Position numbers and translations under genes: made by a program | Source: an uncultured Clostridia bacterium | Lineage (GTDB): Bacteria; Bacillota; Clostridia; TANB77; CAG-508 | DNA: 64,000 nucleotides | Direction: 5' to 3' | Assembly: GCA_934183325.1 (NCBI GenBank) | Contig: CAKPSH010000005.1 | Span: forward strand, 7,749-71,748 | Notes under the pieces: model-generated | Database searches by the model: none | What the model was told of the DNA's origin: nothing | What the model saw: only the letters and a program-made list of their open reading frames with translations | Shown here: positions 46,793 to 64,000 of the stretch, piece after piece | How positions within the stretch are numbered: position 1 is the stretch's first letter | How the letters are laid out: each line of letters opens with the position of its first letter

Positions 46793-49700
46793 TTAAATTT
46801 TATTCTTTAATACAAACTTCTTTATTAGTACAATTCCTAAGGCAATAATAATTATTGTTATTAATATAATTGTTATCATAGTATAGCTTCTATCTTCACC
46901 TGTTGGATCGTTTATTGTAATTGTTTCTGAACTATGTTTTGCTCTTATATGTGCATCATCATTATTCATATCTTGAATTCTACTTACTGTATTGTTTATT
47001 TTTATGATTCTTACACTATTTTTATATGTTTTTGTATCTGTCAAATCATTTTCTGTTGAAATAACTTTAGATAAAGTTATTTTTGATGATGATTCTTCTC
47101 CATGTTTTAAGTTCTTCATTAATGGATTATTTCCTGTTGCAACAACAATTGTATTAACATTATACACTTCACTACTATCCATATCTTTTATTGCTGTTGG
47201 TTCTTTAGTCTCATAGCCTGCTTTTTGTTTATAATAGTTACTTGCAAATTCGTCCTGTGTTTCTTGATGATATATTTCCCAATCATCATTTATTGTACTT
47301 CCTGTATAATCAACTTGAGAAAATGTTAAATTGCTTGGTACAAAATCTGCAACCATTGCAGGTGATGTTGTTGTCTCTACATCATCATATCTATCATAAA
47401 TTTTTATATTTGTTGTTCCAGAATTCTCAATTTTGCTTATTTTATTACCATTTTCATCATTTTCGAATTCTTCACAATTATATACTCTCATACTGTTATT
47501 ATCTCTGTCTTTTACTTCTATCTTGTTCAATAAATTATTATATGCTGTATAATTTTTCTCATAGAATACTGAACTCTTATAATCTTCTTTATATAATCCT
47601 ATACCAATGACATCGTTATTATTGTTTTTATAATATCTTATGGCATCATAATCGCTTTCATTTTTTACAGTTATTTTATATGTTATTTCTAATGTAGCCC
47701 CATTTATTAACTCGTTTGTCATTGATATATTTATATTTGTTCCTTTTTCTACTTGTACTACTCCAGGAACTTTCTGTGTTCTTATTTCTTCTGGTGTGGC
47801 TTCAAATTGTACTGTTCCATTTTGTAATATCAATTTTATCTTTGCAACCTCTTTTGTAATATTTAATTTTGTTTTAGTTCTTGGTGTTAGAGCAAAGTCG
47901 ATATTATCAATTGAATATGATGGATCTTGTTCTCCAAAGGTATCTAATTTAGCTTTTTCAGGATAGAATTCCATCATTGATGTATATGCATACATCATAT
48001 ATTCAGTTGGATTTTTTATTGTATCAACTGCATCTGAATATTTATATCCATTAGCGAATTTATTGTTAATTTCAATTCTTCTGTTTGCTTCATCATATGC
48101 ATCTGAATATCTTGTATCTGTCTCATTTACATACCAGAATCTTGTATTATCACCTGTATTTGTGTTTGGATTTGCTTTTGCAGATTGATAGAATTCTCCA
48201 TTGTAAGGATATTGATATTCTCCTCTGTTCATTGTATCTTTTTGATTTTCACTATTTAAAGTTTTATCCCCATATACAAATCTTACAACATAATTTCCAG
48301 GCATAAATCCAGTAAATGTATAATTTCCATTATCATCTGTTGTAGTTGTTGCCCTTACCATTTGTTTAGTTAATTTTTGTCCGTTTTCCTCTACATCTTT
48401 TAATTCAACTAATTCTACAGTCAATCCTTTTATTTTCTTTGAATTGTCATTTATTGTTGGAGCATTATTATCATAATAATAATTTGCAAAATTCTCTGTT
48501 TCCCATACACTTCCGCTTAGTTTTCTCGTATCATTTGCGTTGCTAAATATCAATGTTGGTGCCTTATCCCAATCTTTTTCACTTGGTGTCGTTTCTAGTA
48601 ATTGCATTGCATTTAAGTTTCCAGGTATTGAATATGTATCCATTACACCCGCAGCTCTATATTGTTTTCCATCATATACATATATATATGCATTAGTTCC
48701 TGCAAATTTAGTTTGTTTTGTTGTACTATCTTGATCAATTCTATAATATGTACTAAAGCCATTTACTTCTGTAATTGTTTCAATATTTATTTTATTGTTT
48801 TGATCTTTACCCAAAGTGTTTTTGAATATAGTTTGTGCAGAATTATCTGTTCCGTGCCATGTTCCAAATGAACAATTATATTTTATATCTTTAGATGAAT
48901 TTTCACCCATTCTATATGTAATATAAATTGATATACTATCATTCGTTTCTAGCATTACACCACTATTTCCAAGATTTATATATAAATCTTGATAATCATG
49001 TCCTGTAGCAAGTCCTGCCGCAATTGCAAGATAATCCTTTGTTTCAGATGTTCTTCCATATCTACTATTAGCACTTGTTGTTGCTTCTAAAATTGGAGTA
49101 ATTTTATTTTTAAATGCACTCATTCCTACTATTTGTTTTCCTGCAGATGTTGTATAACCATCACTGTATGATAAATACATTCTATCCATATATGTTACCA
49201 ATTCATTTACTGTTGTTGGTATATTTGACACATTTTTTACAACAATTTTATATGTTGCATATACTTGTATCTTTGCAGCATCTTCTTCATATGTTGCTGT
49301 TCCATTTCTTAATCTTGCTGAATCTGTGTTGTAATTATAATCATTTGGTGATATCACTTGATTATAAGATAATAATGATGCTAATGTCTTTGTTAAATAA
49401 TCATCTGCTGCAATTTCAAGCTCTTTATCTGATAATGTTCCATATTTATATTCCTCATCTTTTCCGTTCATAGATACAACTGTCTTATATAAATCCTCTT
49501 TTACATTTAATGTTGTAGTTGCTCTTGGAATTAATCCCATATTTATATTTAATTGTCCATTATATACATACCAATATCCACCAGTTGTTTGTTTTGGAGC
49601 ATTTGCAACTGCTTTTTTAGCTACACGCTTTCCATTTGCATCTTTAGTATTTGTTGTTAAAATTATCTTGTCATATACTGGGTAATACTCTTGTTTTACA

Positions 49701-62416: not shown

Positions 62417-64000
62417 TTACTTGCCTTTTATAATTCTTTTCTTTATTTCATAAATCCCAATGATAATTACATTTAAAACAAATACTGCTATTAAAATATA
62501 TACTGCCTCTCCTGTTTTTACTCCAATTATTATTTCTGCATTTCCCATATCATCTTCATTTTGTACTTTATTACCTGGTACTGAATCATAATCATCTTTT
62601 CCTTCTTTGTTATATGTTTCATATATTTCTGCCATATTATTAGTTATACCAGTATTTTTTTCTGACATTGTTTTAGTTAAAATTAACTTTACCTCAGCTT
62701 TCTCTCCTGATTTTAACTCTGTGTTCTTTAAAGTTGAATTATATAGATTTCCATCAGTTCCTAAATACCAGCCTGCATTTAATTCTGAATTAAATTTTAA
62801 ATCTGTCTCCTTTAAATAATCTACAATTTTAGATACATTTCCAGATATAGCTCCTTCGTTTGTAACTGTAATGTTATATTCTATTGCTACGGTCGCTCCG
62901 TCAATTTCTTTTGATTTTATTTCTATTTTTTCTAATTTAGAATTATCATATTCTTTTGTTGTTGTTTTTTCTTTTGTTTTTACAGTAATTTTAGATATAG
63001 ATTTTGATAAACTTAAGTCAAATTTTTCATTTATTATTAATCCTAGGTTTATATTATATACATTTTTGTTTAAGTCAATTGTATCTGTTGCTCCACAATT
63101 CATATCTGTTCCATTTATATTTAATTTTAAATACATTGCTTTGTTTGTATTAGTTCCATCTTTTTGATATTTTGTAATATCGTATATTTTTTCGTCATAC
63201 ATAAATGCTACAACATATTTTCCTTCAAACACATTACTAAATGTATATTCACCATTATCTCCCGTTGTTTGCGTTGATATAATATTACCTGATTCATTTA
63301 ATAAAATTACTTGTATATTTGAAATTAGTTTTTCATCACTTGATTTTTCTCCGTCCGAATTATTATCTATCCATGCTATTCCAGAAATACTATAACTATT
63401 TTTTTCATTACCTTTATATGAATACTTTTTTTCATTAACCTTATGGGTTATTGTAGAGCTAGTTAGATCTTGATAATCTGTATGTACTTTAAAATAATGA
63501 CTTATAATCTTACTTTCATTATACTTTATATAATTTGCTTTTCCACTTACAATTAACTTTAATTTTTCACCTGCTTTAATATCGAATACTTCTTCGTTTT
63601 CATTTGTACCATTTGATATGTAATAAAAATTTCCTTCTTCATCTTCATATCTAATACTTCCTAATATTATTCCTTCTGAACAATAATCATTAATTTGTAC
63701 ATCATAAGCATTATATTTACTATAGTTCTCTATTGTATAAATATATTGAATTTCATCTCCTTCTGTAATTTCACCAGTTTTATTCATGCTTTCATGTGTA
63801 ATTTTCAATTTAGCTTTTCCAACAACAAAACTTACTGTATTACTTATTGCATTTTTTTCTACGCTATCATCCAAATATTTTCCAGTTATATTTAGAGAAT
63901 TTTCATTTTCTTCGCCTTCTATTTCATTAATTTCACAAACTAATATAATTTCTTTATTATTGTTCATTTTATCTATTTTCCAAGTAATATTTTGTCCATC
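62417..64000 (-). CDS. Giant surface protein B' (C-terminal >520 aa; gene continues beyond window end), paralog of B
   Basis: Aligns to B residues ~1130-1664 (…EYIYTIENYSKYNAY…, SGIAWIDNNSDGEKSSDE…GEYTFSNVFEGKYVVAFMYD…). C-terminal AEIIIGVKTGEAVYILIAVFVLNVIIIGIYEIKKR. The track start at 63967 is an internal Met. Confidence 0.75.
   Translation of the reverse strand, partial: DGQNITWKIDKMNNNKEIILVCEINEIEGEENENSLNITGKYLDDSVEKNAISNTVSFVVGKAKLKITHESMNKTGEITEGDEIQYIYTIENYSKYNAYDVQINDYCSEGIILGSIRYEDEEGNFYYISNGTNENEEVFDIKAGEKLKLIVSGKANYIKYNESKIISHYFKVHTDYQDLTSSTITHKVNEKKYSYKGNEKNSYSISGIAWIDNNSDGEKSSDEKLISNIQVILLNESGNIISTQTTGDNGEYTFSNVFEGKYVVAFMYDEKIYDITKYQKDGTNTNKAMYLKLNINGTDMNCGATDTIDLNKNVYNINLGLIINEKFDLSLSKSISKITVKTKEKTTTKEYDNSKLEKIEIKSKEIDGATVAIEYNITVTNEGAISGNVSKIVDYLKETDLKFNSELNAGWYLGTDGNLYNSTLKNTELKSGEKAEVKLILTKTMSEKNTGITNNMAEIYETYNKEGKDDYDSVPGNKVQNEDDMGNAEIIIGVKTGEAVYILIAVFVLNVIIIGIYEIKKRIIKGK

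Follow-up and report, generated by a model that had tools for sequence, protein, structure and literature searches.

The window, a 64-kb stretch of DNA from an uncultured, very low-GC lineage of gut Clostridia, encodes at one end four surface proteins whose C-termini are laid out like sortase sorting signals and carry unfamiliar motifs, and the question that it raises is whether these tails are read by a sortase, by some other enzyme or by none. On the minus strand the genes run B2-A2-B1-A1, two tandem copies of a B-then-A pair, with strict pairing and gaps of 13–16 bp between B and A. A1 (46793..51832, minus strand; 1679 aa) and B1 (51849..56843, minus strand; 1664 aa) are predicted secreted surface proteins; A2 (57061..62403, minus strand; 1780 aa) is a paralogue of A1 with 53% identity, and B2 (62417..64000, minus strand) is 50% identical to its paralogue B1 and is cut by the window end, which leaves its C-terminal 527 aa inside and its N-terminus outside. 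These identities agree with the figure of about 50% given by a sequence-only reading that preceded this analysis. As judged from the sequence, A1, A2 and B1 each open with a predicted Sec signal peptide, in which a basic n-region precedes a hydrophobic core and an AxA-like site. After it, A1 has an N-terminal domain with the pattern Cys...QxAxW...GPF, then SdrD_B/SpaA-like Ig domains, whereas B1 has DUF11/CLIPPER and SdrD_B domains and, last, a terminal Ig-like domain; each of the two closes with the C-terminal anchor signal. Both types are probably giant fibrillar surface proteins of ~1,650 aa with stalks of Ig-like domains.

The tripartite layout described earlier for all four proteins was borne out: a motif, ~20–22 hydrophobic residues and a Lys/Arg tail (KK, KKK or KKR), with 29–34 residues from motif to C-terminus (all coordinates that follow are on the minus strand). 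The A1 motif region, ITINDPTGEDRSY (46883–46921), contains the sortase-like pentapeptide N-D-P-T-G (residues 1641–1645; 46898..46912), for which the family consensus is x-P-x-T-G, and the remainder of the tail (46796..46897) comprises the polar linker EDRSY, the hydrophobic helix TMITIILITIIIIALGIVLI and the basic tail KKFVLKNKI. The A2 region, VVITDPTGENRSY (57142–57180), contains T-D-P-T-G (residues 1745–1749; 57157..57171), continued by the linker ENRSY, the helix LAITITLVSISILAVGIVLI and the tail KKFILK (57064..57156). B1 carries AEIIIAVKTG (51939–51968), ending in the pentapeptide A-V-K-T-G (residues 1631–1635; 51939..51953), then the helix VTYYIGAVIMMITIMAVVVYIV and KKKAIDI (51852..51938). 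B2 carries AEIIIGVKTG (62510–62539), with the pentapeptide G-V-K-T-G (62510..62524), then a hydrophobic helix and EIKKRIIKGK (62420..62509); its motif lies just outside the region as bounded by the sequence-only reading, which ended at 62470, inside the B2 helix. That none of AVKTG, GVKTG, NDPTG and TDPTG is LPXTG, NPQTN or (S/P)PXTG is literally true.

The longer motifs proposed as conserved signals stand as far as the pentapeptide ending in T-G (in the A family, only its Gly), whereas the polar linker 'E(D/N)RSY' varies and 'AEIII' belongs to a strand of the terminal Ig-like domain. In an AlphaFold model of the B1 C-terminus, with a helix at residues 161–188, AEIIIxVK forms the last β-strand of that domain; A-V-K ends the strand and T-G alone, a two-residue junction, joins it to the helix. 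AEIII is therefore structural and outside the recognition motif, and positions 1–3 of the B pentapeptide, lying within the strand, leave an enzyme little free peptide to bind. A Foldseek search with this model returned generic Ig-like matches only. The modelled position of the B motif, with the helix directly after Gly, would suit plain, uncleaved tail-anchoring, in which the helix and KK tail are a permanent type I membrane anchor and the conserved residues preceding them either have a structural role, as the last β-strand, a turn of Thr-Gly or a helix cap, or are what is left of an ancestral sortase signal.

Near-perfect conservation of the motifs between paralogues had been regarded as exceptional and as a sign of selection. 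It is not exceptional: 28 other stretches in the A pair and 4 others in the B pair are identical at 9 or more of 10 residues, and the A motif at only 8 of 10. With so many equally conserved 10-residue stretches, the comparison of the copies alone shows no special selection. Comparison with ~80 related genomes rescues the observation where the paralogue argument is weak. The orthologue set comprised 72 B-type and 82 A-type proteins from 79 related gut Clostridia genomes, whose labels include Clostridium sp. CAG:245, Clostridium sp. CAG:389 and UMGS and MGBC MAGs; pentapeptides were tallied in 70 B and 81 A proteins. Across these genomes the motifs do prove family-specific, with x(V/I/P)KTG fused to the helix in B and an xPxTG-like motif plus polar linker in A. 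The B pentapeptide is (S/G/T/A)(V/I/P/L)-K-T-G, with G at position 5 in 70/70, T at position 4 in 69/70, K at position 3 in 63/70 and V, I, P or L at position 2, and the helix begins 0–1 residues past the Gly; in an alignment of 23 B sequences with a mean column identity of 35%, T and G are invariant columns. The A pentapeptide is mostly TPPTG, followed by a short linker (position 5 G 81/81, position 4 T 55/81, position 2 P at least 54/81). Of the B proteins 72/72, and of the A proteins 52/82, have a motif at a distance of 20–45 residues from their C-terminus, against an internal background of 1.05 (B) and 0.18 (A) per 1000 aa, an enrichment of ~40-fold and >100-fold, respectively; by this measure the motifs exceed chance.

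In the nearest relatives (60% identity) the B motif is GPKTG and the A motif SDPTG; more distant A orthologues have TPPTG, IPSTG, TPTTG or TPSTG. The x-D-P-T-G of the window is probably a clade-specific derivative of the A-family x-P-x-T-G, in which position 2 has changed from Pro to Asp and Pro is kept at position 3; in B, position 2 seems to have relaxed from Pro to Val or Ile. Both window motifs would be lineage-specific derivatives of an xPxTG-type sorting signal, with no separate invention. The divergence is deep, the N-terminal domains sharing only ~17–25% identity, and a relic signal should have decayed over such a distance. A pure anchor also leaves unexplained the near-invariant Thr in B, the preference for Lys at B position 3, which matches the PKTG substrates of C. 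difficile, and the preference for Pro at A position 2 over that divergence.

Other features of the A family point the opposite way. LPP(F/Y)G occurs in about 22 A orthologues, and ADG, PQG or PAG in a few; the residue at which cleavage would take place is F, Y, D, Q or A in whole A clades, and Gly alone is invariant. We know of no characterised sortase that accepts the F/Y of LPP(F/Y)G or the corresponding residues of ADG, PQG and PAG at the cleavage position. Conservation is also very strong at the end of the helix and in the tail, G-I-I-L-I-K-K-(F/K)-V-L (G 71/82, I 76/82, KK 72/82), seemingly beyond the strict need of a retention peptide that is discarded. Tolerance at the cleavage residue favours tail-anchoring, as does the conserved helix end and tail, which would fit a helix that stays in place and interacts with something. 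The LPPFG/LPPYG clade and the Gly-only invariance fit classical sortase chemistry poorly and would also suit a different C-terminal processing system, that is, an exosortase-, archaeosortase- or rhombosortase-like enzyme, or an undescribed protease or transpeptidase recognising x-x-x-(T/F/Y)-G next to a helix.

Curated signal models bear on all of these readings. The NCBIfam sortase-signal models (TIGR01167, Rumino_NPXTG NF033846, strep_LAETG, LPxTATN, LAVTG and GVDTG) describe the same architecture as the window tails, whereas the four tails themselves fall below cut-off or are unmatched: the isolated A1 tail scores 14.3 bits on TIGR01167 LPXTG_anchor (cut-off 15.9 bits), the isolated A2, B1 and B2 tails do not match it, and no sorting-signal model matched the full-length window proteins. 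This failure would be expected of a plain anchor, whereas the scores of three orthologous A tails, 18.5–20.6 bits and over the cut-off, would not. E values of 0.016 or lower, approximately the LPXTG_anchor cut-off, were obtained for 16/77 A tails (best 4.7e-5), and the families most often matched by A tails were the sortase-signal models LPXTG_anchor, Rumino_NPXTG, EF0750_LPXTG and strep_LAETG. B tails matched LPXTG_anchor (16/68 at E ≤ 0.2, best 0.001) and Rumino_NPXTG ahead of all other families. No NCBIfam model matched the LPPFG tail at E ≤ 10, and no existing one describes x(V/I/P)KTG, xDPTG or LPPFG. Sortase and exosortase-type systems alike have a motif, a helix and a basic tail in this order, which keeps the other processing systems in view. 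Set against them, no tail reached the cut-off of any CTERM sorting-domain model: PEF-CTERM scored 12.9 against a cut-off of 23, and GG_III-CTERM, Heimdall-CTERM and Loki-CTERM gave weak sub-threshold matches in 2–5 tails. For the known exosortase, archaeosortase and rhombosortase signals (PEP-, PGF-, PEF-, GlyGly-CTERM and so on), a curated match at cut-off and a cognate gene beside the pair were both absent. Systems of this type are rare in Firmicutes, and we consider one improbable here.

The sequence-only reading had pointed to nearby sortase genes as a thing to look for. No sortase was found among the ORFs of the window or of 81 related loci (1.49 Mb) with a TLxTC pattern, a looser pattern or phmmer using S. 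aureus SrtA and SrtB. Ten window ORFs that had no assignment were scanned with Pfam and yielded BofC, AI-2E transporter, G5/3D, CmpB-type, SprT-like and DnaJ proteins, and no sortase. Clustering of conserved neighbours across the related loci placed MreB, MreC, MreD, PBP2, MinC, SpoIIE and small ORFs beside the pair, and neither a processing enzyme nor a multi-pass exosortase-like gene adjoining it; a literature search for sortases in the TANB77 lineage returned nothing. Housekeeping sortase genes are commonly unlinked to the genes of their substrates, so that absence from these loci is weak counter-evidence. Even so, three results count against a sortase (its absence from the loci, the F, Y, D or Q in place of Thr, and the unusually conserved helix and tail), and they therefore make uncleaved tail-anchoring a serious rival. 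It has a precedent in C. difficile, where, according to PMC5569036, some good SPxTG proteins are not processed by sortase. We judge a plain membrane anchor the second most probable of the explanations first proposed, behind a sortase and ahead of another processing system.

Our preferred reading, to which we assign a probability of roughly 0.55, is that the tails are divergent sortase sorting signals, close to the (S/P)PKTG of C. difficile and the (E/Q/V)(V/P)PTG of S. pyogenes. The N-terminal signal peptide would direct each protein to Sec for export, and the hydrophobic helix at the C-terminus, with its Lys/Arg stop-transfer tail, would keep it in the membrane; the pentapeptide, A/G-V-K-T-G in B and N/T-D-P-T-G in A, would then serve as the sorting motif for cleavage by a sortase, and the carboxyl group of Thr would be joined to peptidoglycan. 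Judged by the bioinformatic description of sortase substrates in PMC4155245, the tails appear to agree in everything except the exact motif: T-G is present, conserved and within the CWSS distance of 17–45 residues, and positions 1–2 (N/T-D in A, A/G-V in B) match no characterised motif. More doubtfully, the B-then-A pair may be a lineage-wide core envelope module beside mreBCD-PBP2-minC, whose strand-fused x(V/I/P)KTG and polar-linker xPx(T/F/Y)G tails are read by an enzyme of undescribed specificity, either a sortase tolerating an aromatic or acidic cleavage residue or a non-sortase enzyme, or whose G-x-x-x-I-K-K-x-V-L helices are permanent anchors with a membrane function of their own.

Sortase substrates are usually predicted by pattern, from LPXTG and a few variants. 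Both tail types would escape such screens and NCBI's curated model, and yet the proteins that carry them are the largest two, and the most conserved, on the surface of abundant uncultured Clostridia of the animal and human gut. Should a sortase read them, the known set of accepted motifs would grow to include Val or Ile as second residue, an Asp-Pro preceding T-G and perhaps a Phe or Tyr where cleavage takes place, and the surface proteome of these organisms would become predictable; if none does, the tails exemplify a sortase signal turning into a membrane anchor. The practical value is modest either way until the genomes are screened for sortases.

In the N-terminus of the A-type proteins, the Cys is 95% and the W of QxAxW 90% conserved among 58 orthologues. 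The thioester family PF08341 matched 1/51 A orthologues, weakly (E = 0.088); PDB searches by sequence and by profile gave nothing meaningful, a homologue search with the A1 N-terminus as query found nothing, and AlphaFold (2 sequences) gave a pLDDT of 35 and no usable fold. A protein-representative search mostly returned giants with SdrD_B repeats, its query profile having included SdrD_B columns. The Cys/QxAxW pattern is reminiscent of thioester tip adhesins and, with the strict pairing across short gaps and the resemblance of TPPTG to the VPPTG of Cpa, would accord with A and B being subunits of a sortase-assembled pilus or fibre, B as shaft and A as tip adhesin, joined by a pilin-type sortase through xPTG/KTG in the manner of S. 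pyogenes Cpa and Spy0128. We hold this very unlikely. Pilus sortases are normally clustered with their pilins, and a pilin-specific sortase adjoins the pair in none of the 81 loci; moreover, A and B are multi-domain fibrils far from pilins of 30–60 kDa, and the thioester domain of A is only putative.

Among known systems, the SrtB of C. difficile cuts SPKTG and PPKTG at the T-G bond but did not cleave the NVQTG of CbpA in vitro (PMC4155245). The likeness lies in the clostridial setting, a non-Leu position 1, a preference for Lys at position 3, and T-G followed by a helix and two or more basic residues. GPKTG in the B proteins of the nearest relatives agrees with (S/P)PXTG at position 2 only in its first two residues, whereas the window B proteins have Ala or Gly at position 1, Val at position 2 (as in NVQTG) and a motif fused to a β-strand; none of AVKTG, GVKTG, NDPTG and TDPTG has the Ser/Pro at position 1 and Pro at position 2 that this signal requires. 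The S. pyogenes class B sortase Spy0129 accepts EVPTG (Spy0128) and VPPTG (Cpa), consensus (E/Q/V)(V/P)PTG (PMC3019223). Like these, the window xDPTG and the TPPTG of orthologues have Pro directly before T-G, and Cpa is an adhesin, and A-type proteins may carry an N-terminal thioester-like domain; TPPTG orthologues conform to the signal, whereas the window A proteins have Asp at position 2 in place of a hydrophobic residue or Pro, adjoin no pilus sortase and are giant fibrils. The fibrillar adhesins with DUF11/CLIPPER and SdrD_B stalks (bioRxiv 10.1101/2025.04.25.650565) have the same domains as B, SdrD_B/SpaA-like domains in common with A, and an equally elongated multi-domain architecture; in contrast to typical adhesins, which are accessory, the B-then-A genes are core and syntenic, beside mreBCD-PBP2-minC throughout the lineage.

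The four minus-strand genes form two adjacent pairs, A1 (46793–51832, 1,679 aa) with B1 (51849–56843, 1,664 aa) and A2 (57061–62403, 1,780 aa) with B2 (from 62417, cut by the end of the window). The intergenic gaps of 13 bp (B2–A2) and 16 bp (B1–A1) within pairs, against 217 bp between A2 and B1, indicate that the region holds two copies of one unit, a B gene closely coupled to the A gene that follows it. The G+C content of the window is 24–31%. Long plus-strand ORFs rich in Leu and Phe, none above 353 aa, lie across B1 and the A genes (for example, at 54320–56539). Rather than genes, they look like antisense artefacts of a coding strand that is AT-rich and encodes much Lys, Glu and Asn.

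The closest matches to the window proteins in the protein collection have 44% (A) and 60% (B) identity. By synteny and composition, the window groups with low-GC, uncultured Clostridia of the gut (Clostridium sp. CAG:245 and CAG:389, and UMGS and MGBC MAGs). A scan of species-representative genomes returned 508 relative-encoding stretches, of which 79 loci were kept, all from uncultured gut Clostridia MAGs (including Clostridium sp. CAG:245 and CAG:389, and UMGS, MGBC, rabbit, chicken and Hadza MAGs). Nearly every locus pairs a B gene (about 1,650 aa) with an A gene (about 1,300–2,100 aa) immediately after it, in the usual order mreB-mreC-mreD-PBP2-minC, two small ORFs, B, A and spoIIE (loci L003–L086; for example, L015 1–21074 and L083 1–21668). 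This conserved pairing and context identifies the B–A pair as a core, syntenic feature of the lineage, not an accessory adhesin. In the window, by comparison, the pair is tandemly duplicated and lies in another context, upstream of secE-nusG-rplK-rplA-rplJ, where the SecE-like ORF (46008–46412, minus strand, 134 aa) has a long low-complexity C-terminal extension rich in Asn, Glu and Ser.

The A and B proteins are giant fibrillar surface proteins. [quoted passage not shown] Assembly of A and B into a pilus seems very improbable. The N-terminal domain of the A proteins (50633–51832 in A1, 61204–62403 in A2), compared across 58 orthologues from loci L003–L081, contains three near-invariant patterns: [YFW]-C (A1 Cys64, 95%), x-Q-x-A-x-W (W177, 90%) and [IV]-G-P-[FY] (G238/P239, >90%). 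As a sequence pattern this resembles thioester (TQXA) adhesin domains; the Pfam TED model matched 1 of 51 A N termini (E = 0.088), a profile of the domain found no match in the PDB, and the AlphaFold model (pLDDT 35) was unusable. In a rumen-type contig (L001 3747–5034; also L002), a 150-aa signal-peptide protein is encoded between B and A, and a 282-aa ORF that overlaps the start of the A gene may represent an A N-terminal domain that has been split or frame-shifted.

At their C termini, A1 carries ITINDPTGEDRSY, TMITIILITIIIIALGIVLI and KKFVLKNKI; A2, VVITDPTGENRSY, a helix and KKFILK; B1, AEIIIAVKTG, VTYYIGAVIMMITIMAVVVYIV and KKKAIDI; and B2, AEIIIGVKTG (62510–62539), a helix and EIKKRIIKGK. 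Re-reading of the sequence reproduced these motif–helix–basic-end tails as described in the sequence-only reading, with the correction that the B2 motif falls just outside the region to which they had been assigned. That reading also took near-perfect motif conservation between paralogues of about 50% identity as a sign of selection. The overall identities are indeed 53% (A) and 50% (B), but the argument is weak: stretches identical at 9 or more of 10 positions occur 28 times in the A pair and 4 times in the B pair besides the motif, and the A motif itself is identical at 8 of 10 positions. Conservation among orthologues is more informative, and the tails are most likely divergent sortase sorting signals (probability about 0.55). 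They show all the generic features of sortase substrates apart from the exact motif, T-G (or G) is kept over very deep divergence, Pro is preferred at position 2 and Lys at position 3 of the pentapeptide ending in T-G, and some orthologous tails pass a curated model.

The same kind of tail ends 37 of 37 B homologues. The pentapeptides of about 70 B sequences have S, G, T or A first; V (29), I (23), P (7), L (6) or T (4) second; K third in 63; T fourth in 69 of 70; and G fifth in 70 of 70, with 0–1 residues between this Gly and the start of the uncharged stretch. The T and G columns are invariant in an alignment of 23 sequences with a mean column identity of 35%, and the nearest relatives have GPKTG. 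An AlphaFold2 model of the C-terminal 189 residues of B1 (29 aligned sequences, mean pLDDT 85.9) shows an Ig-like β-sandwich with its last strand at 148–158 (GMAEIIIAVK), a two-residue T159–G160 junction and a helix at 161–188; all its Foldseek matches were generic Ig-like folds of adhesins, pilins and cohesins. Of the proposed B motif AEIIIxVKTG, the pentapeptide thus stands as the conserved core, and the AEIII part would, on this model, be structural. The embedding of the motif in the last strand favours the main rival, uncleaved C-terminal tail-anchoring, which we regard as less likely but a serious contender.

About 81 A sequences begin the pentapeptide with T, L, S, H or I. The second residue is P in at least 54 and D in 9, which make up the clade of the window (SDPTG, NDPTG, TDPTG); the third is P, S, N, A or T; the fourth is T in 55, F in about 22 and Y in 2; and the fifth is G in 81 of 81, with 2–11 polar residues between it and the helix. 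The window A motif derives, within its clade, from TPPTG-like signals. Both A and B motifs are strongly enriched 20–45 residues from the C terminus relative to internal sequence. Tail-anchoring gains some ground from a whole A clade (L016, L018, L022, L024, L030, L033, L042, L050, L059, L061, L063, L073, L074 and L078) in which VVKILPP(F/Y)G replaces xPxTG, so that an aromatic residue stands where a sortase would cleave; in these genomes the B partner keeps (S/T)(I/V)KTG. In a second clade (L001, L011, L012, L027, L038, L040, L044 and L052) only the Gly of the motif is constant (HAPTG, HEPTG, TEPTG, also NVADG, TVPQG, TPPAG and TVNTG), the few ADG, PQG and PAG endings again favouring that rival, and a conserved linker of 10–11 residues, L(T/S)(V/I)I(Q/E)N..SN, separates motif and helix. 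Tail-anchoring is also favoured by how strongly the end of the A helix and its tail are conserved, as G-I-I-L-I-K-K-(F/K)-V-L (46796–46840, 57064–57100 and orthologues), with columns G (71 of 82), I/V, I/V/F, L/F, I (76 of 82), K and K (72 of 82 each), F/K, V, L, K and K, which exceeds the conserved composition that a stop-transfer tail would be expected to show.

Tail-anchoring would also account for the absence of a sortase from the window and 81 related loci (1.49 Mb), searched with an active-site pattern, with SrtA and SrtB as phmmer queries, and by scanning unassigned ORFs against Pfam. Each locus covers only about 1% of a genome, and a housekeeping sortase is normally encoded away from its substrates, so this result does not mean that the genomes lack one. 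Recognition of the tails by another C-terminal processing system appears improbable; no exosortase-, archaeosortase- or rhombosortase-type model matched A or B tails at threshold.

Full-length window proteins matched no sorting-signal model, and the isolated A1 tail, at 14.3 bits, falls short of the TIGR01167 LPXTG_anchor cut-off of 15.9. Orthologous A tails reached 19.0 (IPSTG), 20.6 (TPTTG) and 18.5 bits (TPPTG) on this model; 16 of 77 A tails reached E ≤ 0.016 (best 4.7e-5), and the families that A tails matched most often were sortase-signal models. For B tails LPXTG_anchor led the matches (16 of 68 at E ≤ 0.2, best 0.001), with Rumino_NPXTG next. Clostridioides difficile SrtB cleaves SPKTG, PPKTG, SPSTG and SPQTG between T and G, leaving LPETG, NPQTN and NVQTG uncleaved (PMC4155245), and the Streptococcus pyogenes class B sortase Spy0129 accepts EVPTG and VPPTG (consensus (E/Q/V)(V/P)PTG; PMC3019223). 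Sortases are thus proven to process motifs that have Lys at position 3 or Pro immediately before T-G, although some C. difficile SPxTG proteins still go unprocessed (PMC5569036). The A and B tails, described by no curated model and in the window scoring below the existing cut-off, represent a variant within a known class of signals, borne by two giant proteins whose pairing is conserved in an uncultured gut lineage.
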